This document shows positions 2,016-34,017 of a DNA stretch of 64,000 nt, piece by piece. The position numbers and the translations under genes were made by a program. The notes below the pieces were generated by a model. It was given only the letters and a program-made list of their open reading frames with translations, ran no database searches and was not told the DNA's origin. The first letter of the stretch is position 1; the number at the start of each line of letters is the position of its first letter. The DNA is taken from the IMG/VR virus record IMGVR_UViG_3300046517_001279; one strand, 5' to 3'. Source of the stretch: an uncultured virus (IMG/VR IMGVR_UViG_3300046517_001279) (Duplodnaviria > Heunggongvirae > Uroviricota > Caudoviricetes).

Positions 2016-2027
2016 TTGGAGGTTATC

Positions 2028-2276
2028 ATGGAAACCCTACTTGCCCGCGTCTCGGTGGGCATCTCCGAGTTGAAACTCAACCCTACGGCGGTGCTCGACG
2101 GGGCGGACGGAGGTGCTGTCGCCATCCTCAACCGCAATAAGCCTGTGGCGTACCTGCTGCCGGCAGCGATGTACGAGAAGATTCTGGACCGGCTCGAAGA
2201 CTACGAGCTGGGGGAAATTGTGCGGGAGCGTGAGAACGAGCCGTCCGTCGAAGTGGACATCAGCCGTGACCTATAA
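2028..2276 (+). CDS. Phd/YefM-family antitoxin (YafN/StbD-like)
   Basis: SVGISELKLNP...VAILNRNKPVAYL motif; GGAGG RBS; overlaps the toxin gene. Confidence 0.9.
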   Translation: METLLARVSVGISELKLNPTAVLDGADGGAVAILNRNKPVAYLLPAAMYEKILDRLEDYELGEIVRERENEPSVEVDISRDL

Positions 2277-2550
2277 GCTGCTGTTCAAGGAGAGCGCAGC
2301 CAAGGAGTGGAAGAAGCTCGACGGTGACATCCGGAGACAGTTCTCCAGGAAGCTGAACGAGCGACTGGAGAGCCCACGAGTTCCGCACGACGCGCTCCAC
2401 GGTATGAAGGACTGCTACAAAATTAAGCTCCGGACCAAGGGCTATCGGCTCGTGTACCGGGTCGAGGACGAGATCATCACAGTCACCGTGATCGCTGTTG
2501 GCCGACGCGAGGGCGGTGAAGTTTACGAAGAGGCTGCGAAAAGACAATGA
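2266..2550 (+). CDS. relE: RelE/StbE-family mRNA interferase toxin
   Basis: YKLLF..AAKEWKKLD...CYKIKLRTKGYRLVY...VIAVGRRE...VYEEAAKR. Confidence 0.9.
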   Translation: MTYKLLFKESAAKEWKKLDGDIRRQFSRKLNERLESPRVPHDALHGMKDCYKIKLRTKGYRLVYRVEDEIITVTVIAVGRREGGEVYEEAAKRQ

Positions 2551-4580: not shown

Positions 4581-4905
4581 TTCGGCCACCATACGCCGAA
4601 GGCCCGCACAGCCTCCAGCCTGTAAACGCTTCGTACAGCCTATTATCTGTATCGACTCTCGACTACACTGGAGTCCCACAAACGGAGGAACGCATGCTGC
4701 TTTACGCAATCCTCCGCTGGCTTCTGTTTCTCTTCAGGCGCGCCGTCCTTGATCGGCCCGGCGCGTTTCAGTGGGCGCGAGCAGCGCCCTCTAAGAACCA
4801 CGAGGCGACGCCTCAACTAAGCCAGCGGCGCGGACAGGGAAAGAGACCCTGAACCCGCGACGGCCGATCATTTACCCATGGAGCCGCCACAGAGCGGCTC
4901 TCTTG
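4581..4905 (+). ncRNA. candidate structured RNA 1 (structured leader or mRNA)
   Basis: Stems TTCGGC/GCCGAA, CTCCAG/CTGGAG, CGGAGGA/TCCTCCG, CCGCTGGCTT/AAGCCAGCGG, TGATCGGCC/GGCCGATCA, GGGCGC/GCGCCC, CAGGG/CCCTG and GAGCCGC/GCGGCTC. Confidence 0.45.
4694..4852 (+). CDS. 52-aa peptide with hydrophobic N-terminus (type I toxin-like)
   Basis: GGAGG at 4684-4688 then ATG; MLLYAILRWLLFLFRRAVLDRPGAFQWARAAPSKNHEATPQLSQRRGQGKRP; below the ORF-track size cut-off. Confidence 0.4.
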   Translation: MLLYAILRWLLFLFRRAVLDRPGAFQWARAAPSKNHEATPQLSQRRGQGKRP

Positions 4906-4936: not shown

Positions 4937-4964
4937 TTGCATGAAGCGACAAATCTGGTATAGT
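4937..4964 (+). promoter_or_regulatory. sigma70-like promoter for the ACP gene
   Basis: TTGCAT-16 bp-TATAGT with an extended -10 TG. Confidence 0.55.
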
Positions 4965-4998: not shown

Positions 4999-5244
4999 AT
5001 GCCCACCATCGAAGACCGCGTAAAGCACATCATCGCCGACCAGGTTGGCCGCGCCGGAACCGACATCCGCAACGACCAGAATCTCGACAGCGATCTGGAC
5101 CTCGACTCGCTCGATCTGGTCGAGATCGGGATGGGTCTGGAGGAGGAGTTCAATTGTGAGATTCCGGACGAGCGCGCGCTAGGGCTCACCACGGTGCAGT
5201 CTGTGATCGACCTGGTCAACGAATACCAGCCCGCGACGCTGTAA
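4999..5244 (+). CDS. acpP: acyl carrier protein
   Basis: Acidic 81 aa; IEDRVKHIIADQ...DLDLDSLDLVEIGMGLEEEFNCEIPDE...TTVQSVID with the DSL phosphopantetheine serine. Confidence 0.92.
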   Translation: MPTIEDRVKHIIADQVGRAGTDIRNDQNLDSDLDLDSLDLVEIGMGLEEEFNCEIPDERALGLTTVQSVIDLVNEYQPATL

Positions 5245-9386: not shown

Positions 9387-9692
9387 ATGACCGACGCAAC
9401 CACGACCGAAGCAACGACGGCCGCAGCAGCTGATACGACCACCACGCAAGCAGCCGGCGCGCCGGTCGCAACGCTGAGCGGCAACATTGCGAGCGCGCTG
9501 AGCGCAGTCGCGACGACAACCACCACCGACGCAACAACCGGCACGACCGCCGTCGCGATCCCGGCCGCCTCGCACGAAGAAGCCAAGGGCATTTTCGCCA
9601 GCCTCGCGGAAAAGCTGGCGAACTTTGAGCACGCTTTGGCTGCCGACGCGAAAGCCGAAATCGAAAAGCTGAAAACGCTGCTCCACCTGTAA
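9387..9692 (+). CDS. Thr/Ala-rich low-complexity protein
   Basis: AGGA RBS; helical C-terminus. Confidence 0.6.
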   Translation: MTDATTTEATTAAAADTTTTQAAGAPVATLSGNIASALSAVATTTTTDATTGTTAVAIPAASHEEAKGIFASLAEKLANFEHALAADAKAEIEKLKTLLHL

Positions 9693-9695
9693 GCA

Positions 9696-9918
9696 GCGGT
9701 AAGGCAAGACAGAGAACCGGGCACGCGCCCGGTTCCGTTTCGTTAGGATTTCGAATCATTGCAGTCCTAACGAAACGGCGGTATAAATGTGACCGACCAG
9801 CAAGACACCGCATTGCACATGCGGCGCCCGAAGAGGCGACTCCAAGCGGAGCGTGCCGCAGCCCGTAATGTGCTGACGCGGCTAGGGGCGGTCCCCGCCA
9901 AGGGACCGCCCGCTTTTA
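9696..9918 (+). ncRNA. candidate structured RNA 2 ending in an intrinsic terminator
   Basis: 9-bp hairpin 9714-9735, 14-bp perfect hairpin 9735-9778, multibranch domain 9778-9859, 10-bp GC hairpin 9886-9911 followed by TTTT. Confidence 0.5.
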
Positions 9919-9941
9919 CCTTCGGGACCGCTAAATTCCCC

Positions 9942-9969
9942 TTGCGGAAAACTATAAACAGCGTATAGT
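9942..9969 (+). promoter_or_regulatory. sigma70-like promoter
   Basis: TTGCGG-16 bp-TATAGT. Confidence 0.45.
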
Positions 9970-9999
9970 TTGCTCGTTCCAACTCGAAACCCCGCTACC

Positions 10000-10236
10000 A
10001 TGCGACTTTTACCTGTCATTTTGTTTGCAGTTGCCACCGCTGCGCACGCCCAGTCGGACGACGTGCCTCTCAGAACGCACGCGACGCTGTTTCCTTGTCC
10101 GAACGGCCCCGGCGTCGCCGTGGTTGCGGATCAGCCGGACGGCAGCCAGGAGTGGGCCGGCTGCTGGGGTAGCGATGCTCCAGTGCAGGACGACTACCAC
10201 CGCGACGATCGCCGATCACACACGCTGCGCAAGTGA
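10000..10236 (+). CDS. small secreted protein
   Basis: Signal peptide MRLLPVILFAVATAAHA|Q; two Cys. Confidence 0.55.
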   Translation: MRLLPVILFAVATAAHAQSDDVPLRTHATLFPCPNGPGVAVVADQPDGSQEWAGCWGSDAPVQDDYHRDDRRSHTLRK

Positions 10237-10477
10237 CGGGCGCCCTGAAGTGCGCGACGCAGCCATACAGCCGGTCGATCAGAGACGCGGCTCCCTGTGG
10301 TCTGCGCACACCCCGGAATCAGCCAACGGGACTGCGTGAGCCCTAGTACGCTGGAGAGATCAACCGACTGCCGCTCCCGCGCTCCGGAGGGCCACGATAG
10401 CGTGATCGAGGCTTAGCAGGGAGCCCCAGAAGGGGATACATCGAACCGGGCCGCACTTCAGGGCGTCTGCCCTTTTT
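10237..10477 (+). ncRNA. candidate structured RNA 3 (nested long-range stems)
   Basis: 18-bp closing stem 10237-10254/10452-10469 with 2 G-U; nested 10271-10279/10440-10449 and 10289-10297/10417-10425; then TTTTT. Confidence 0.55.
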
Positions 10478-10500
10478 AACAACCACAAGAAGGAGTACTA

Positions 10501-10830
10501 ATGGGTTCTTTGAAAGCGTTTCTCATTACCGTTGCCGTGGTCTTAGGCATCGCGGCGCTCGGGGTCGCCGGCCGCGAGTTCTCGCTGCGCATGAACGCGC
10601 ACTACGCCCCGCGCGAAGAGCAGGTGCGCCACAACACGTTCGAGTGCAGCCAGTCGCACAGCGACGGCATGGCGCGCGAGATCCGCCAGTATCAGGATCA
10701 GTATGGCGCTGCCGACACTGCGGGTAAGGCAGTCATTCGTCAGCGCGTGCTGCAAGACGCCGAGAGCCAAAACAGCGACGCCTGCCCGCTGCCGTCCGAT
10801 GTTCAATCGTTTGTTCAATCCCTTCGTTAA
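10501..10830 (+). CDS. membrane-anchored hypothetical protein
   Basis: AAGGAG RBS; N-terminal TM helix; Cys pair. Confidence 0.75.
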   Translation: MGSLKAFLITVAVVLGIAALGVAGREFSLRMNAHYAPREEQVRHNTFECSQSHSDGMAREIRQYQDQYGAADTAGKAVIRQRVLQDAESQNSDACPLPSDVQSFVQSLR

Positions 10831-10833
10831 GCC

Positions 10834-11394
10834 ATGAACCTGAATACTTTCCGCCGTCCGCTCGCCGCTTTCGCAATCTGCGTGGGTGCTTTTTTCGTCC
10901 TGACCGCTGAATCGTGCGACGACCCAACGCCGCCGACCGCGAACCAGCGCGAGCAACGCGCGCAGGCGCAATTGACCGCCGAGTCGCAAATGACCGTCGG
11001 CATGCCAAACATCACGAACTTCAATCAGAAGAAACAGCTGAAGGCAATCATCGAAGCCTTCGACCAGCCGAACCTGATTACCTACAGCTACATCGTGAAC
11101 ATGAGCGGCAAGGCTGTGCCGCTGTGCCGCTCGCAGGGCTACGGCTTCAATGAGGCAACGCAGTTCACGAACCCGCTGGCGATTGAGTGGCGTCAGGGGC
11201 AGGGAAGTGGCAGTAGCATCGCGAGCGGCGTCGTCGGCCAGGCCGATCCGACCGGTCTGTACTCGCCGACCACGTCCGAGGGCACGCTGCTGATGTGCCT
11301 GACGACCGCAGGCAAGGTGCTTCCGGTGCGCAGCGAACCGAGCATTCTTACGCTGCCGGTGCCGTACGAGCAACTCGACCGCTCGGGGATGTAA
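10834..11394 (+). CDS. putative exported protein or lipoprotein
   Basis: Basic then hydrophobic N-terminus ending LTAESC (lipobox-like). Confidence 0.7.
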   Translation: MNLNTFRRPLAAFAICVGAFFVLTAESCDDPTPPTANQREQRAQAQLTAESQMTVGMPNITNFNQKKQLKAIIEAFDQPNLITYSYIVNMSGKAVPLCRSQGYGFNEATQFTNPLAIEWRQGQGSGSSIASGVVGQADPTGLYSPTTSEGTLLMCLTTAGKVLPVRSEPSILTLPVPYEQLDRSGM

Positions 11395-15274: not shown

Positions 15275-15313
15275 GTGTTAAGCTATAAATTCAACAATTT
15301 CAGGGAAGAAGAC

Positions 15314-15817
15314 ATGTCTCATTTTTTAGACGTCGTGCGTTTTAACGAGGCCGCGCGCGGCGCGCTCCCGCACACTCCGACGAAGCTCTCGCACGCCGAC
15401 ACGAAGCTCGCTCTGCGCTTAGTGCTGGAGGAGTCATTCGAGTGCGTGACCGCGATGTTCGACCCGGACAGCGCGGTGTACAAGCGCCTGCTGAGCCATC
15501 ACGAGCACATGCAGTACGTCCTGAAGACCGAGACGACCGCGCGCGATCTGCAGCAGGACGACGTCGAGTTGCTCGACGGCCTATGCGATACGCTCGTGGT
15601 CGCGATGGGAATGGCTGCGATGGCCGGCCTGCCGCTCGACGAAGGTATGGACGTCGTCAACGCGAGCAACCTCGCGAAGATCGATCCAGTGTCCGGCCGC
15701 TGCATCAAGGACGCGGGCGGAAAAATTCAGAAGCCTGCGGGATGGGTAAAGCCGGACCTCGCAGCGGTGATCGAGCGTGCGCGTGAGCACGGCAACCGAG
15801 GAGCCAAGCCATGCTGA
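15314..15817 (+). CDS. MazG-like (all-alpha) nucleotide pyrophosphohydrolase
   Basis: LVLEESFE...ELLDGLCDTLVV...VNASNLAK...KDAGGKIQKPAGWVKPDL. Confidence 0.85.
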   Translation: MSHFLDVVRFNEAARGALPHTPTKLSHADTKLALRLVLEESFECVTAMFDPDSAVYKRLLSHHEHMQYVLKTETTARDLQQDDVELLDGLCDTLVVAMGMAAMAGLPLDEGMDVVNASNLAKIDPVSGRCIKDAGGKIQKPAGWVKPDLAAVIERAREHGNRGAKPC

Positions 15818-16218
15818 AATGGTTCAATTTGCAGGATATCCACAAGCACAAAAAAATGCGCGACGCGTACTCCAGCTATCGTGGCCGGATTGCGCGCACG
15901 CACGCGAAGTACGCACGCCACATCGATATCCAGCGGACCGGCGCCGGCCGGCCGACGCGCGTCACGCTGATCACGATGGAAGGCGTCGAGGCGCTCTACG
16001 ACCCATCAGAGGAACTGCCCAAGCTGCGCGCCTACCACGTGCCGATGCGGCTGACGGACAAGGCCCGCGCGTACATTCTCGAAGGCGGCATCGACACCAA
16101 GTTCACGACGGAAGGACTGGAGGAGAAGCCGCGCCAGATGAACCGCGAGCAGTTCATCGCGTTTCTGACGAAGATCGGCAACGACGAGTTAGTCGAGCCG
16201 GACTTTATCCCTCTCTGA
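15811..16218 (+). CDS. hypothetical protein
   Basis: GAGGAG RBS. Confidence 0.6.
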   Translation: MLKWFNLQDIHKHKKMRDAYSSYRGRIARTHAKYARHIDIQRTGAGRPTRVTLITMEGVEALYDPSEELPKLRAYHVPMRLTDKARAYILEGGIDTKFTTEGLEEKPRQMNREQFIAFLTKIGNDELVEPDFIPL

Positions 16219-16219
16219 T

Positions 16220-16525
16220 ATGCGAACGATCCATAAGTTTAGAGGGCAGCCGCCCAGCGGCCGCAATGCGGGCGAGTTCCTGGTAGAGATGCCGCGCAAC
16301 GCGGACATCCTCTGCGTGAAGGTGCAGGACGGCACCGCGCGCGTCTGGGCGATCGTCGAGGACGACGCGAAGGCTGAGATGCGCCGAGTCGTGGTGGTCG
16401 GTACCGGCTGGCCGCTTCCTGCTGACATGGGGCGCGGCGAGTATATCGGCACGTACCAGACGGATGGCTTCGTGTGGCACGTGTTCGCTGCGAAGCCGAA
16501 CGCGCTATCGGGAGAGGCAAAGTGA
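16220..16525 (+). CDS. hypothetical phage protein
   Basis: VVGTGW...YIGTYQ...FVWHVF. Confidence 0.65.
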   Translation: MRTIHKFRGQPPSGRNAGEFLVEMPRNADILCVKVQDGTARVWAIVEDDAKAEMRRVVVVGTGWPLPADMGRGEYIGTYQTDGFVWHVFAAKPNALSGEAK

Positions 16526-17097
16526 GCGACGAGTATCTGGCAAGCATGAAGCAGCGGTTCGACGAGGCACACACGCTGGCAAGCATGAAGAAGCGGTTCG
16601 ACGAGGCATACGCGCCGATTTTGGGTAGGAACCGCGCTCAGAACGGAATCGGTACAGACGAGGCGTACCTGTACAAGATGAAGGTCGAGTTCGACGCAGC
16701 GATGGCGCTCGTGCGCGGCTCGGCTGAGGAGGTCCAGTGGGTGCGCAACGTTCTCGCCGAGCACGGCTACATCGGCCCGCTCAGTGAGACGACGTGCCCG
16801 CTGCGTGAGTGGTTGGCTCCGCAGGAGACGCAGCCGGTGCCTGAGAAGTTCACCGAGTACGTGATCGAGCACGACGCGCGCGGGCGCATCGTCTACTTCA
16901 GCCTGCAGGATGCAATGAGCAGGATGGGCGAATTCGCTGCGAACGGGGAGAAGTTCACCTTTTCGACCGGAGAGTTCAAGTTCGCCGACGAGTGGAAGTT
17001 CGCCTGCAACATGCTCGCGCAGGGGCAGCCGCTGTCGGGATCAAGCATCTACGCACTGAAGATCGGCGTCGCAGCCGGCATGACGCCAGATCTATGA
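16522..17097 (+). CDS. hypothetical protein with internal 13-aa duplication
   Basis: GTG coupled; LASMK(Q/K)RFDEA occurs twice. Confidence 0.6.
   Translation: MSDEYLASMKQRFDEAHTLASMKKRFDEAYAPILGRNRAQNGIGTDEAYLYKMKVEFDAAMALVRGSAEEVQWVRNVLAEHGYIGPLSETTCPLREWLAPQETQPVPEKFTEYVIEHDARGRIVYFSLQDAMSRMGEFAANGEKFTFSTGEFKFADEWKFACNMLAQGQPLSGSSIYALKIGVAAGMTPDL
16537..16614 (+). repeat. 39-bp tandem duplication
   Basis: CTGGCAAGCATGAAG(C/A)AGCGGTTCGACGAGGCA.. at 16537 and 16576. Confidence 0.9.
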
Positions 17098-25170: not shown

Positions 25171-26630
25171 TCCACTATCACGGGCTACCCATCACGCCCG
25201 GGACCGCTGCGATCAAGGCCATATTCTGCGGGCACGCGTTCATTTCGTTCCGTCACCCGGAGCAGCTGGGGGTGGCGCTAGAAGTGGTTCAGACTTTCGC
25301 GATCGATAACGGAGCGTTCTCAGCGTGGATGAGCGGGTCACCGATCACCGACTGGAAGCCTTATTACCAGTGGGTCGCGGAGTTACATCGCTACCCGTCT
25401 TTCGACTTTGCGGTAATTCCCGATGTCATTGGGGGAAGTGAAGAAGATAACGACAACCTGATCGAGGAGTGGCCGTGGAAGGATACGGCACCTCATATCG
25501 GAGCACCTGTATGGCACCTTCACGAAAGTCTTGAGCGCCTGCAACGCATGGCTCTGCGCTGGCCTCGCATCTGTATTGGCAGTTCCGGGGAGTTTGCGAC
25601 GGTCGGCACTGAGCAGTGGAACACGCGCATGGCTGAGGCAATGGACGTCATTTGCGATAAGCAGGGACGGCCGGTGTGCAAGATACACGGTCTGCGAATG
25701 CTTAACCCGAAGGTTTTTACTCGGTTCCCGTTTGCAAGCGTGGATAGTACGAATATTGGACGAAACATAGGCATCGACAAGAATTGGAAAGGGACGTACA
25801 CCCCTCCCTCAAAAGAGTCACGTGCGCAGGTCATGCGGGATCGGATCGAGGCGCACCAGGCACCGACTTTTTGGGAGAGGGACAAAACGACTAGCGCTGT
25901 GACTGAGGTTAAGACCGCCCCAGTTGCTCCTAAAAAACGCTCAAAAAAGCCCAAGAAAACAATGGTACGAATCTACATTGCCGATACAGAAACAACGGGG
26001 CTAGACAACGATGCGCGGGTAGTCGAATACGCGCATATCGAATGCACGCTGCAGAACAATCGCCTCGTCGAGCGCAGCCGCTTCGAGACACTCGTGCAGC
26101 CTGGCATCCCGATCCCGGCCGGCGCGACCAAGGTGCACGGCATCACCGACGAAATGGTCAAGACAGCGCCGGCCATCCGCGACATTCTGCCGGCTGCGCT
26201 GAACGTGAAGAAGGGCGAACACATCCAGGTGTTCGGTCACAATTTCCCCAGCTACGACATGAAAATGCTGGACGGTGTCTACCCGAAGGGCATCGACATC
26301 GGCTGCACGCTGAAGGCCGCGCGCGTGTTTATCGAAGCGCCGGGCCACAGCCTCGACAAGTTGCGCGAACACCTGAAGCTGGAGAAGACCGGGCAGGCGC
26401 ACAGCGCGCTGGCCGACTGCCTCGACACGCTGCAGATCATCAATCACATGCTGGCCGATCGCGAGTGGGACGTATTGGAGTCCTGCATGCTCCAGCGCCC
26501 GACGACGATCTCGTTCGGCAAACACAAAGGCAGCAAGCTCGAAGATCTGCCGGATAGCTACGTGCGCTGGCTGCTCGAAGACTGCGACTCAGTTGGTTGG
26601 GAGTTGCGTCAGGTTCTGGAGGCACTGTGA
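25167..26630 (+). CDS. TGT/DpdA-like TIM-barrel domain fused to a DEDDh (ExoX/DnaQ-like) 3'-5' exonuclease
   Basis: TTG start with GGAGG RBS; DNGAFS, IPDVI, PVWH, IHGL, SVDSTN; K-rich linker; then DTETTG, HNFPSYD, HSALAD and FGKHKG...YVRWL. Confidence 0.65.
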   Translation: MIHYHGLPITPGTAAIKAIFCGHAFISFRHPEQLGVALEVVQTFAIDNGAFSAWMSGSPITDWKPYYQWVAELHRYPSFDFAVIPDVIGGSEEDNDNLIEEWPWKDTAPHIGAPVWHLHESLERLQRMALRWPRICIGSSGEFATVGTEQWNTRMAEAMDVICDKQGRPVCKIHGLRMLNPKVFTRFPFASVDSTNIGRNIGIDKNWKGTYTPPSKESRAQVMRDRIEAHQAPTFWERDKTTSAVTEVKTAPVAPKKRSKKPKKTMVRIYIADTETTGLDNDARVVEYAHIECTLQNNRLVERSRFETLVQPGIPIPAGATKVHGITDEMVKTAPAIRDILPAALNVKKGEHIQVFGHNFPSYDMKMLDGVYPKGIDIGCTLKAARVFIEAPGHSLDKLREHLKLEKTGQAHSALADCLDTLQIINHMLADREWDVLESCMLQRPTTISFGKHKGSKLEDLPDSYVRWLLEDCDSVGWELRQVLEAL

Positions 26631-28189: not shown

Positions 28190-31100
28190 ATGCGCATCGC
28201 AAAGCACATAATTTACGACCTGAGCAGCGTGCTCAAGCGCGCTTACTTCGCAGGTATCGATAAGGAATTCGGCTTCCCCGTCACGTTCGAAGAAAAGCAG
28301 GTGCATGTGAACGGATGGGAGTACGGCCGCGAGAATTTCCTGAACAGCGTGCATGCAACGCTGCGGGATCTCAACGCAGCGCCGATGGACGTGATCTTCG
28401 TTCTCGAAGGTAGCCACGGCACCACGATCCGCCGCAATATCCTGCCTCAATACAAGACACGCGCGCCGCGTCCGCAGGAACAACTCGACCAGTACAACAA
28501 GCTGGAACAGTGGGTGCAGACGTTCTTCACGCGCATGGGATCGACGTTCGTGCGTCAGGATGGGTTGGAAGCTGACGATGTTGTCGCGTATCTCGCGCGC
28601 AATTTGAAGGGCGAGCGCGTAGTCGTAATGGACGACGGTGACGCACTTATTCTTGCGCAAGAGCGAGGTGTCACCGTTCGCTACCAGAGCAAGCAAATCA
28701 CGCCGGACGCTGAAAACCCGCTTGGGCCTTTCGCGGTTGAGTTCAATCGCATCTTCAAAGCGATCGTCGGTGATAAGAGCGATACGCTGCCGGGTGCTAA
28801 GGGGGTCGGCGACAGAGGCTTCCTCGACCTGTTCGTGATGTGTGAAGAAGACGGCTTGCGCGCGCTCTCTAAGATCATCGAGGATGGCGATTGGGACCAG
28901 ATCCGCGAGGACGCCAAGCAGGTCAAGGTGCTCCAGAAGATCCTGGACTCGGCGGACACTGTGCGCCGCTGCTGGAAAGCGGCCGGGTTCTTCGACCACC
29001 TCGTCAACGTGCCCGGCAAAAAGCCCGTTTGGCAGCCGGGTATCGTGCTGGAGAAACCAGAAGGCGAAGTGCCCGACGAACGCTGGGATAGATTCTATCA
29101 GCAGCGCCGGATCGTGCACGCCGATAATTTCGCGCAGGTTATGGCTTCAGACATCTGGGCCAAGGTTCGCCAGTCGCGCTGGGTGTCGATCGACCTTGAG
29201 TCCTTCACGCCGCCCGAGAGCGACGAGTGGCTGCGAGCGGTGAACGACCAAAGTGACGACGATGAGCCGAAGGGCATCGATATCCCCGGGCAGATCATCG
29301 CCGGCATGGGCGTGACGTTCGGCTTCAACCAGGAGTTCACGCTCTACTTCACGGTGAACCACGCGACCGACAAGAACATCACGATGGAGCAGCTTTATCT
29401 GTTCCTCGACAAGTTGATCAAGGCCGATCCGGACATCCGTTTCAACGTCCATAATGCGTCGTTCGAACTGGTGGTCTTCTTCAACAATCTGATCAATTAC
29501 ATCGGCGAGAACGAGGCATGGGATTGTGGCTTCCTGCCGCGCATTGACGACACGATCTTTCAGGCCAGCTATGTCGACGAGAACCAGAAGCTCGGCCTGA
29601 AAGCACAGGCGAAGTTGCGTCTGGGCTACGAGCAGGTCACATACGAAGAAGTGACGCAGGGCCGGAAAATGAACGCCCTAACGCCCAAGGAAGTGTTCTC
29701 GTACGGCACAGACGACACAATCGTCACCTCGGCGCTGCGCAATTTTTACCAGATCATCCTCGAACTGGAAAACACGTTCGACCTGTACCGCGACGTCGAG
29801 ATCGACGCTGCGTATCTGGTCGCAGCGGGCATGGTGACCGGCTTCAAGTTCAACCGCGAAACGATGCGCCAACAGGAGCGCGCTGACGACAAGTTGCACG
29901 ACGAAGCGTGGGGCAAAGTGCGCTCGTATCTCGTCGCGCAGAAGTGGGACGGCGTCGAGATGCAGCCGCTCACGCTCGAACCGGCGAGCATGAAGGACAC
30001 GTTCCGGCTCGTGACCGGTCGCGACCTGGAGACGAAGGTCCGCACTCCGTCGAAGATCGTCGACCTGATGCGCGACGAGGACGGCGCCGAAACACTGGCC
30101 GAACTCTACGCGCAGGCCATCGCTGCGAACGGCGATATGCAGCACGTCGAAGCCTACGCGCGCAAGTTCTTCAAGGGCGAGCCCGACCTGAACGTCGATA
30201 GCCCGAAGCAAATGACCCGGCTGCTGTACGAGACGATGGCGCTGCCGATCCGCGTGCGCAACCGACCGACCGCAGCGGACAAGGCCCAGTTCGGCCGTAA
30301 AGCCGAAGGCTCTCCGAAGTCGGACGCACTCGCCATCGCGAGTGCGAAGTTCTACGACGGTGAGACGCATGGCGAGGCTGTGGCGGTGCTCGACGCGCTG
30401 CACACGATGCGCGCTGTCGCCACACGCCGCAAGCTGTTCTACAAGCCGTATCGTTATTTGCAGCACTGGAAAACAGGCCGCATCCACGGCTCTGACGGTC
30501 AGTGCATGACCGCGACGCGCCGTTTCGCGCCGTCGCGCCCCAACAAGGCGCAATGGCCGAAGACCAAGGGTGATTTCCGCCAGAACATCGAGCCGCACCA
30601 CAAGGACGCTGTGGTGGTCGCACTGGACTTCCGGGCGCAGGAGTTGCGCGTTATCGCGGACACGTCGGGCGACCCGGCAATGACGTCGTGCTTCGTGGGC
30701 GAGAATCAGGCCGACATGCATCACCTCACGGGTGTGTCGATCGCGCAGAAGAAGATCGACCCCGCGATGTCGTACGAGGTGTTCGCAGCGGCGATTGACG
30801 ACGTGAGCCACCCTCTGCACAAGCAGATCAAGGCGACGCGCGCCAAGGCGAAGACGACCAACTTCGCGAGCGAGTACGGCGCGCAGGCTCCGAAGATGGC
30901 GCAGACGCTTATGGTGCCCGAGGCCGAGGCGCAGTCGTACCTTGACGCAAAGCACGCGACGTTCTGGATTGCGGAAGAGTGGAAGTCGGAGAAGGTCATC
31001 CCGGCTGCGAAACAGCGCGGCTATGCGCTGACACGTTTGGGCGGCCGGCGCCACCTCGACGAAGCGTTCGCATCGGACGACTGGGGTGTTCGCAGCGGCG

Positions 31101-31750: not shown

Positions 31751-32037
31751 TGGGAATGATCAGCATATGGGACGGCGAGGATCTGCCGCCTCTCGGGTGC
31801 GACGTGCTGATCGAGCACGGTAACCTGGAGCACGCGGTGTGCACCGTTACCGGCTACTCGGTCCGTCCGTCGCTGCACGGCAACAAGTTTGAGCACCGCA
31901 TCGACGTGAACCTGCTCTACAAGGACACGACAACCACGAACCAACGGCTGCTGTGCGATGTGCGTCCACTCCACAAACCTTTCGAGAAACGCGATGAGCG
32001 AGCAAAGCGAGTACCCAAGAAAGCGCCCGCCGCCTGA
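31750..32037 (+). CDS. hypothetical protein
   Basis: TAATG coupling. Confidence 0.55.
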   Translation: MGMISIWDGEDLPPLGCDVLIEHGNLEHAVCTVTGYSVRPSLHGNKFEHRIDVNLLYKDTTTTNQRLLCDVRPLHKPFEKRDERAKRVPKKAPAA

Positions 32038-32251
32038 CACAGGCCCAGAAGCGCCCGTACAGGCCGCCGTGAAGGTCGGGCAGGTGTGGGAGGAGGCAGA
32101 CCCACGCGGCGGCCGCACGGTGACCGTCACGGCCGTTTTGGGGAGTTCCGTGACGGTGCGCAGCGCTGGGGCGAGTCCGCAGATCTACGCGTCGAACCTC
32201 AGCCACTTCGGATCGCTGAACGGGTACCGACTGGTGGAGGACGTCAAATGA
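31994..32251 (+). CDS. hypothetical protein
   Basis: VKVGQVWEEADPR; coupled to the next gene. Confidence 0.5.
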   Translation: MSEQSEYPRKRPPPDTGPEAPVQAAVKVGQVWEEADPRGGRTVTVTAVLGSSVTVRSAGASPQIYASNLSHFGSLNGYRLVEDVK

Positions 32252-32382
32252 AGATGACCATAAAAGCGCTCATTACGTTCCCGGTCTGTCCGCCGTTGGT
32301 GTGCGTAGGACTGCTTGCCTACAGCGCCGAGCAGATCTGCAGCCACGCGCTCGACCGCATCAACGACTGGATCGAAAAATGA
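32248..32382 (+). CDS. small hydrophobic protein
   Basis: GGAGG RBS; ATGA coupling at both ends. Confidence 0.45.
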   Translation: MKMTIKALITFPVCPPLVCVGLLAYSAEQICSHALDRINDWIEK

Positions 32383-32720: not shown

Positions 32721-33532
32721 CGAAGCATGTTGTTTGTTACTCAGGCGGCCACAGTTCGGCTCTTGTCGCGATAGAGGTGGCGCGGAAGTTCCCGGGAGAC
32801 GAGATCGTACTACTGAACCATGATCTCCCGTTCTGGGTGGAGGACCGCGACACCAAAAGGTTCAAACAGGCGGTTGCGGACTACTTAGGGCTGCAGATCA
32901 CATTCGCCAGTCATGAGAACGGGTCGAAGGACCAGTTTGACGTAACCGTCGCCAAGAAGGCGTTCAAGGTGGGCGGCGGCTCCGAACTGTGTACCAGCGT
33001 GCTGAAGACGGAGCCGTTTCAACGGTGGTTGAAAGAAAACGCGGACCAGAGCAACGCGATTTGTTACTACGGCTTAGACGCCAACGAGCCGGCGCGGATT
33101 CAGCGCCGCTCGTCGATCATGGGGCAGATGGGGTGGCGCACGGACTACCCCGTCGCGCTGTGGCCGCAGCGAACGATTTACAGCACGCTGGAGATTGGTA
33201 TCCCGCTGCCTTGCTCGTACGGCGTCTTCAAACACGCCAACTGCGTCGGGTGCCTGAAGGCAGGTCTGCAGCACTGGTACGTCGTATTTTGCACCCGGCA
33301 GGACGTCTGGCTAAAGGCGAAGTGGGCTGAGGATGAAATCGGCTACGCCATTCACAAGGATAAGGACGGGCCGGTTTTCCTGGAAGACTTGGAACCGCGA
33401 TTCCAGGCGATGCAGGACGCAGGCGTAGAACCCACCGAGCAGACGCCGTCAGGGCAGTTCTGGTCGAAGGCCAAGAAGATTGTGGCTATCCATGCCACAA
33501 CCGAAACCAAACCTTGCGAGTGTGCAGCATGA
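32717..33532 (+). CDS. PAPS-reductase-like PP-loop protein with Cys motifs
   Basis: VVCYSGGHSS PP-loop; CTSVLK; HANCVGCLKAG; C-terminal PCEC. Confidence 0.75.
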   Translation: MTKHVVCYSGGHSSALVAIEVARKFPGDEIVLLNHDLPFWVEDRDTKRFKQAVADYLGLQITFASHENGSKDQFDVTVAKKAFKVGGGSELCTSVLKTEPFQRWLKENADQSNAICYYGLDANEPARIQRRSSIMGQMGWRTDYPVALWPQRTIYSTLEIGIPLPCSYGVFKHANCVGCLKAGLQHWYVVFCTRQDVWLKAKWAEDEIGYAIHKDKDGPVFLEDLEPRFQAMQDAGVEPTEQTPSGQFWSKAKKIVAIHATTETKPCECAA

Positions 33533-34017
33533 GCGACGCAACCGCCTTCACCGACTACCGTGACCGCAAGAAACTCTCGCAGCAGGGCAAGTCCGCTGAG
33601 AGCCTCGTGAAGAAGTACTGCGAGCGGGAAGCCGAGCGGCGCGGCATCGCGTTTCACTGGGAGCGCATCCCCGACGCGCGCGCCGCTGGTGGCCGCTTCA
33701 CTCCTGTGGCCGGCGACTTCCGCATGGGCTACGGCGGACGCTACGCAGTGGTCGAGGTCAAGGAAACGACCGCGATTCACAAACTGCCGAAGAAGAACTA
33801 CTCCCGCGACGCGATCGCCCGGCTGTACAAGCACCACTTGTCGGGCGCGGTGACTGCGGTGCTCGTGCGCCACATGCCGCTGGACGTGTGGGTCGTGATG
33901 CCGATCAAGCACATATTCGACGCGGACACACCGAGCTGGAGCACGCTGGAGTTCCCGCATTTCGAGTCGGCCGACATTGCGCTTGACTTCGCGTTGCGCG
34001 CATTGTTAAATAGCTAA
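33529..34017 (+). CDS. PD-(D/E)xK nuclease, Holliday junction resolvase (RecU-like)
   Basis: GKSAE...RIPD...GDF...VEVKET. Confidence 0.7.
   Translation: MSDATAFTDYRDRKKLSQQGKSAESLVKKYCEREAERRGIAFHWERIPDARAAGGRFTPVAGDFRMGYGGRYAVVEVKETTAIHKLPKKNYSRDAIARLYKHHLSGAVTAVLVRHMPLDVWVVMPIKHIFDADTPSWSTLEFPHFESADIALDFALRALLNS

Follow-up and report, generated by a model that had tools for sequence, protein, structure and literature searches.

Several described systems come close to the locus studied here. R1.1 of phage T7 is a long stem that lies between the cistrons of a polycistronic phage mRNA and has the length of an RNase III substrate. For this enzyme a 12-bp stem can suffice, no strong consensus is followed and loops of four to thousands of nucleotides occur, according to PMC8708148. 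DicF, encoded in the dicBF operon of the Qin prophage, stems from an RNase III product of about 190 nt between small genes (10.1101/2023.04.14.536235). ROOL, GOLLD and lnc001/002 of phage K, a looser parallel, are gene-free structured stretches of phage genomes with no known role (PMC9241854, PMC12286853). MITEs and invertons have in common with the element that short inverted repeats flank some 200 bp of DNA without coding content.

The element described here (10237-10477, plus strand) is a gene-free stretch of an uncultured soil phage that is closed by an 18-bp helix, P1, and so contains the at least 12 bp of double strand of an RNase III stem. It differs from each of these systems. R1.1 is a local stem-loop of 49 nt, whereas the arms of P1 are 197 nt apart around a folded domain. 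With DicF it shares neither sequence nor an Rfam match; a terminator forms the end of DicF, which is shortened to a pairing RNA of 53 nt, whereas a double cut in P1 would split the interior from the U-tract. Compared with ROOL, GOLLD and the phage K RNAs the element is much shorter and has no adjacent tRNA genes, no Rfam match and no covariation support. Unlike MITEs and invertons, it shows no target duplication, second copy, recombinase or internal promoter, all of which were looked for.

Genomic setting of the element

The window, i.e. the whole analysed stretch of 64,000 nucleotides, is part of a tailed phage genome. Genes for the tail tube, tape measure, tail tip and lysozyme are on its minus strand, and genes for DNA polymerase A, helicases, a ligase and ThyX on its plus strand. 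Its proteins were also found on a contig of 71,198 bases, which extends beyond the window by at least 7 kb. The named relatives, Pseudomonas phages Lana and PMBT3 and Vibrio phages, are distant (26-29% in the polymerase). Uncultured relatives form a clade with 49-87% identity in the helicases and several genomes of 84-95 kb, and five of its members (G006-G010) were compared as DNA (55-64%). Another five phages (G001-G005) were rejected as relatives, having in common only the 109/186-aa gene pair described below and one or two other genes. In rhizosphere sequencing runs, four DNA runs contained only short identical pieces and no variants.

The element lies among the small genes of an accessory arm (acyl carrier protein, methyltransferase, phosphoesterase), and the genes around it are tightly packed with gaps mostly below 90 nt (11 of 14). 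Several other features of the window were recorded. The acyl carrier protein gene (4999-5244, plus strand; PF00550, phrog_5934) has a promoter-like site upstream at 4937, and a similar-looking ORF was seen at the matching place in the complete relative G006. A pair of a Phd/YefM antitoxin and a ParE/RelE-type toxin at 2016-2550 (plus strand), preceded by a separate promoter-like site (1967), hints at a phase that is temperate or plasmid-like; despite this pair neither an integrase nor a resolvase turned up in 5 kin records. A 52-codon ORF at 4679-4852 (plus strand) has a hydrophobic basic N-terminus and a strong Shine-Dalgarno sequence that pairs inside the ORF at -12.8 kcal/mol. A terminator-like hairpin follows near 4881-4900, the folding z-score of the region is -5.1 and no match was found in Pfam or PHROG; we take the ORF to resemble the message of a type I toxin or of a small membrane protein. 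A run of strong hairpins at 9700-9930 (plus strand, z -6.3), 3' of a 101-aa gene, includes terminator-like sites at 9714-9735 and 9886-9911 and remained without a match in Rfam and phage searches. In G006, one terminator-like hairpin stands behind the homologue of the 101-aa gene.

Observations were also made in the other genomes. Repeats of 14-30 bp, which occur in either orientation in gene-free arrays and look like replication-origin iterons, were found in G006 (31806-32253, L160) and G009 (28931-29872, L172), and a palindromic 14-16-mer stands ahead of many small genes in G007 and G008. Gene-free intervals of 218-292 nt with closing helices of 11-13 bp occur at 28488-28705 in G006 and 33263-33554 in G007, which are kin, and at 25936-26175 in G003; their sequence is unrelated to the element. 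An accessory interval of G006 (L159, about 15300-16900) codes for a 530-aa protein that by eye is like a sedolisin (S53) peptidase.

The features of the locus are as follows.

9942-9969, plus strand: promoter-like site of the sigma70 type (TTGCGG, 16 nt, TATAGT), at which the operon transcript is predicted to start
10000-10236, plus strand: gene of a 78-aa secreted-type protein, supported by homologues; its stop codon adjoins the element
10237-10254, plus strand: 5' arm of P1, the long-range clamp (helix scan, pair probabilities, shuffles)
10257-10309, plus strand: local irregular hairpin of the minimum free energy (MFE) structure (fold A), z -3.25, which excludes P2 and P3
10271-10279, plus strand: 5' strand of candidate helix P2 (fold B), from the sequence, pair probability 0.002-0.004
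10289-10298, plus strand: 5' strand of candidate helix P3 (fold B), 9 Watson-Crick pairs and 1 G-U pair, the longest interior helix
10299-10415, plus strand: core, z +0.35
10416-10425, plus strand: 3' strand of P3 (fold B), with the 9-bp Watson-Crick part at 10289-10297/10417-10425
10440-10449, plus strand: 3' strand of P2 (fold B), with one bulge in P2
10452-10469, plus strand: 3' arm of P1 (helix scan, pair probabilities, shuffles)
10460-10477, plus strand: weak terminator-like hairpin (5 bp, 4-nt loop) with U-tract, overlapping and competing with the 3' arm of P1
10471-10493, plus strand: candidate hairpin that would place the U-tract over the Shine-Dalgarno sequence of the next gene (10490-10495)
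10501-10830, plus strand: gene of a 109-aa protein, hydrophobic segment at the N-terminus, supported by relatives
10834-11394, plus strand: gene of a 186-aa predicted lipoprotein, widespread in phages (phrog_24725)

The gene upstream of the element is, judged by its conservation, a real gene. Five homologues of 79-84 aa with 57-72% identity share a signal-peptide-like start and two invariant cysteines and end at about the same place; no family was found for the protein in Pfam or PHROG. Read-through of its stop codon (UGA followed by a stem) was rejected, since a second in-frame UGA follows four codons later and the homologues end where this gene does. The promoter-like site at 9942-9969 was found by a motif scan, is similar to the site at 4937 and has related stretches in the kin G006; a scan with a stricter -35 rule gave no promoter at this position. 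Downstream, the 109-aa protein has relatives in other phages at 41-91%, none of them with the element upstream. The 186-aa protein belongs to an atlas cluster 'Lipoprotein family protein' (score 0.95, 86% viral, 2985 members, no Pfam family). The pair of genes (10501-11394) has 70-82% DNA identity among phages that otherwise share almost nothing. With a signal peptide upstream and a membrane anchor followed by a lipoprotein downstream, both flanks look to be of the envelope type, as the original prediction had it.

The outer helix and the 3' end

The pairing of 10237-10254 with 10452-10469 was found at the predicted place. P1 is the longest helix of the window scan and consists of 16 Watson-Crick and 2 G-U pairs on the plus strand, whereas on the minus strand 14 bp are left. 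When the 264-nt gap was shuffled with preservation of dinucleotides (n=1500), no shuffle contained an equal helix, either as 14 consecutive Watson-Crick pairs or as 18 bp with 16 Watson-Crick pairs. In ViennaRNA the pair probabilities of P1 were 0.87-1.0 and the helix dominated the ensemble. In a transcript context of 584 nt the inner 14 pairs kept 0.87-1.0 and the outer 4 fell to 0.08-0.26. A second register of P1 was 2.5 kcal/mol worse. The 5' arm begins one base past the upstream stop codon and the 3' arm stops three bases before the U-tract. P1 is a real long-range clamp around a gene-free stretch of 200 nt.

That both non-Watson-Crick pairs are G-U on the plus strand was also borne out, but as an argument for the strand and for selection on the RNA this appears weak, because two transition mismatches share a strand half the time and because the end of the helix was itself set by permitting G-U. 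It is hardly credible that the gap is a neutral spacer with a chance inverted repeat. The interior is near chance and no conservation was seen, as such a spacer would have it, but P1 was reached by none of the shuffles, its arms lie exactly at the ends of the gap and the neighbouring genes are tightly packed.

No reading frame runs across the element on either strand, the G+C content is even across the codon positions within it, and 7 frames tested gave no PHROG match. Among the ORFs of at least 20 aa inside the clamp, none on the plus strand is hydrophobic and starts with ATG. A type I toxin mRNA with 5'-3' pairing was rejected, since no small hydrophobic ORF with a Shine-Dalgarno sequence lies inside the clamp. 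The likeliest reading is a non-coding structure of the plus strand, because the better folding z-score, the flanking genes, the promoter-like site and the U-tract are all on this strand.

The element was said to fill the whole gap. It takes up 241 of the 264 nt, but the remainder is the leader of the downstream gene. The tract of five U that was to follow is present at 10473-10477 and is the only U-tract of the element; the 23 nt behind it are too short for a promoter. The terminator-like hairpin at 10460-10477 was not called by a terminator scan. Its modelled energy is -7.5 kcal/mol, and that of the candidate hairpin at 10471-10493 is -4.5 kcal/mol. In the transcript context most positions of the Shine-Dalgarno sequence are predicted to be paired.

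These overlaps could mean that the element is purely a cis-acting control of the downstream genes, with the interior as a sensor or spacer and a free RNA irrelevant, which we consider unlikely. In such a device P1 would cover the 5' arm and the loop of the terminator-like hairpin (antitermination), and it would put the upstream stop codon about 20 nt from the next Shine-Dalgarno sequence, with the U-tract free to cover the latter. The overlaps are real in the sequence, for the two hairpins as well as for the second register of P1, the lack of room for a promoter behind the U-tract makes read-through necessary, and a 10-nt segment is predicted to switch the interior between two folds (see below). 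However, the terminator-like hairpin is short and was not called, no riboswitch was matched in Rfam, and the downstream genes occur elsewhere without the element. At 7 of 7 loci (3 distinct sequences) the similarity of the 109/186-aa pair begins at 10481 or later and another gene is directly upstream; likewise, in the kin G010 the pair is directly behind another gene. The downstream pair therefore does not need the element, and the element is not its required control.

The interior and its two candidate folds

Inside P1, two more nested helices and a multibranch had been proposed. The complementary sequences of P2 and P3 are present, but they do not form the preferred fold. Their pair probabilities in ViennaRNA were 0.002-0.005, and imposing them cost about 4.8 kcal/mol of ensemble energy and 6.8 of MFE, because the hairpin at 10257-10309 takes their 5' strands. 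The helices of the original prediction alone gave -72.7 as compared to -113.0 for the MFE. When 10255-10264 was deleted, the prediction turned to P2 and P3 at 0.99. This effect of a 10-nt deletion points to two competing folds, A with the local hairpin and B with P2 and P3. Thus, of the three nested helices the outer one stands and the three-helix arrangement as the fold does not; it is, in the modelled ensemble, one of two candidate folds. The inner multibranch fails in the form given, since its GCGT/ACGC and CTGGAG/CTCCGG hairpins both use nucleotide 10351 and are mutually exclusive as written.

How far the interior departs from chance depended on the part tested. For the hairpin of fold A (z -3.25), 2 of 300 shuffles were as good, and for the core (z +0.35) 176 of 300 shuffles folded equally well. 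A 9-bp Watson-Crick helix somewhere, which is the background for P3, occurred in 211 of 3000 shuffles, and a rule tailored to P2 and P3 after they had been seen was satisfied by 1 of 3000. A plain end-to-end duplex test was equalled by 43, 76 and 88 of 1000 shuffles with arms of 50, 45 and 60 nt, respectively, and the same untailored test of the interior by 386 and 840 of 1000 with arms of 40 and 35 nt. The whole element had z -3.85 on the plus strand as compared to -1.55 on the minus strand. Since the interior alone reached only -1.37, the value of the whole comes from P1. Helix-trimmed control intervals from other phages had z -3 or lower on at least one strand in 7 of 8 cases (-3 to -6), and one of these intervals is inside an open frame of 1077 codons. 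As the controls reach equal values, the -3.85 is not extra support.

A pseudoknot between 10257-10264 and 10329-10337 is not claimed; a duplex of -13.1 is possible, and by a hand estimate a 6-bp match is expected by chance. Nine bases at 10342-10350 (plus strand) resemble the 5' half of the sarcin-ricin loop of 23S rRNA. The tetraloop half is missing and the resemblance is probably due to chance.

Relatives, known families and a possible processing module

The distribution of the element was examined in several collections. A BLAST comparison of the element with 50,697 phage records gave no match with an E value of 1 or below, and the upstream 551 nt were likewise without a match in phage records. 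In 72,556 plasmid records only short chance pieces were found; none of the matches listed (15 of 38 weak ones) exceeded 16% coverage. Exact patterns of the P1 arms did not occur in IMG/VR, and three interior motifs gave 13 loci there, all by chance (alignment scores 18-27, closing helix 5-9 bp). Whole virus records compared by BLAST (5, 5, and 50 of 54 intended) gave only matches of 14-42 nt with E 0.017 or worse. A covariance model of 10271-10449, a weak search as it was built from one sequence, found only itself in 46 sources with 840,657 bases (next match at E 1) and nothing in 50 records. DNA scans for loci that encode homologues of the 78-aa protein were either empty or led to spurious places, 39 metallophosphoesterase loci were without the element, and a metagenome scan with the 109-aa gene gave two loci, of which one lacked the element and the other broke off at the gene. 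No description of the element was found in the open-licence literature.

In the complete relative G006, the interval between the homologues of the 101-aa gene and of a 458-aa gene is taken up by different cargo of about 5 kb, and nothing of the element is seen there. Together with the occurrence of the downstream pair elsewhere without it, this marks the element as lineage-specific cargo in a hot spot. Such a distribution would also fit a small insert that is mobile or has decayed, be it MITE-like or a captured piece of DNA, with P1 as its terminal inverted repeats, which would be tolerated because the paired ends loop it out of the message. This explanation has a low probability in our view. 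The element is found in one lineage, in an interval where the kin carry other cargo, a perfect 14-bp inverted repeat is at its extreme ends, and its interior folds near chance. But neither a flanking direct repeat nor a target duplication of 2-12 nt was found for four choices of the ends, the window holds a single copy, the listed plasmid matches stay within the coverage given above, and no transposase was among the 59 window proteins scanned.

The same 14-bp repeat could be the site of a recombinase that flips the 197 bp and alters the expression of the envelope genes. The length is within the 10-40 nt of inverton repeats, and invertons are found near surface genes, as stated in PMC11892184. 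We nevertheless regard a DNA inversion switch as very improbable, since the enclosed DNA has no internal promoter or U-tract on either strand and since neither the 59 window proteins scanned nor any of the 5 kin records (2 complete) yielded an integrase or a resolvase. Among the matches listed, 3 of 3 contigs across the left arm had the orientation of the window, at a depth of only 2-4; no inversion joint was among them, and none crossed the whole right arm.

Stems that close the 5' and 3' ends are common to 6S, SRP, Y, retron and DRT RNAs. The judgement that the element is not 6S, SRP, RNase P, tmRNA or a riboswitch was upheld by a search of Rfam 15, which covers ribozymes, group I and II introns and ROOL, GOLLD and OLE as well and gave no match in the window at the gathering score. 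At E up to 10, four matches were obtained in 9600-10600, none of them over the element. ARAGORN reported no tRNA or tmRNA, and neither a T-loop motif on the plus strand nor a terminal CCA was present. Retron RNAs have paired terminal inverted repeats (a1/a2), and P1 has this form, which is not specific for retrons. A retron or DRT RNA was rejected because it requires a reverse transcriptase, and neither the 59 proteins scanned in the window nor any of the 5 kin records included one; the contig continues for at least 7 kb outside the window. Group II introns start with the motif GUGYG, which is present at 10250. Such an intron was rejected, as Rfam gave no match to domain V and both flanking genes are whole. 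For a Csr/Rsm sponge, 6 GGA were counted in the element as compared to 5 in the upstream gene, which has the same length, and 1 in the gene downstream. YrlA, a bacterial Y RNA, carries the motif GNCGAAN0-1G near its 5' end (PMC4201824); the motif is absent from both strands of the element, and no Ro60/TROVE gene matched among the proteins scanned around it (criterion: within 4 kb).

There is little to suggest a diverged member of a described family, or a published viral candidate RNA outside Rfam. Closing stems are widespread among known RNAs, but no Rfam match over the element was seen even at E up to 10, the motif tests failed and the window and the kin lack a reverse transcriptase. A catalogue of 10,006 viral candidate RNAs has been published (PMC10690425), and short motifs of the element gave no match in the six of its supplementary files that were searched. 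The element could be among the candidates of this catalogue.

Taken together, the element is an unclassified clamp that most likely serves RNA processing, perhaps with a passenger RNA, and that probably works in the manner of an RNase III stem. As a specific mechanism we favour, at a little under even chances, a clamped RNA module that is cut by RNase III from a polycistronic message, like the T7 and dicBF stems, with the freed RNA acting in trans. This reading is preferred because it needs the fewest unshown parts. The host RNA polymerase would start at 9942 and transcribe the 78-aa gene and the element, then partly stop at the U-tract or read into the 109/186-aa genes. P1 is predicted to close once its 3' arm has been transcribed, and the 18-bp helix would be cut by the host RNase III. 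The cut would part the upstream and downstream messages and free a folded RNA of 200-215 nt, the ends of which may be shielded by the remaining stem. Most likely, the freed RNA would act in trans on a host protein or RNA; we infer this because products of accessory regions usually act on the host, and from the size of the RNA, the extra order of its interior and the independence of the downstream genes.

The bracketing of the gap by P1 from the stop codon to the U-tract counts for this processing module, as do the promoter-like site and the conserved upstream gene on the same strand. The interior has more order (hairpin A; P2 and P3 with 43-88 of 1000 shuffles at arms of 45-60 nt) than an inversion site or transposon ends would need. 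DicF offers, by analogy, a precedent for an RNase III product of 190 nt (same source, 10.1101/2023.04.14.536235). The orphan status of the element and its absence from G006 speak against the module, since a useful RNA might be expected in the kin. Against it are also the overall folding of the interior, which is like that of shuffles, the z-score of the whole element, which the helix-trimmed controls match, and the presence of two incompatible folds, neither of them dominant on independent evidence.

Going beyond the processing module, the element might represent a new class of phage RNA, a two-state RNA of 200-240 nt that is released by RNase III and serves as a decoy for a defence or regulatory protein of the host, which we regard as rather improbable. 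Fold A would then be adopted during transcription and fold B, a three-helix rod with purine-rich internal loops, after refolding or binding of a partner. If this were true, the accessory arm of the phage would contain up to three structured RNAs, the element among them.

The accessory regions of phages collect anti-host functions, of which the non-coding ones are poorly catalogued. As a single sequence for which no relatives were found, the element opens no general question yet. If P1 is only a processing or attenuation stem, it would be a tidy, ordinary case of a known mechanism; if the RNA is released and stable, it would add an unclassified RNA to those of phages.
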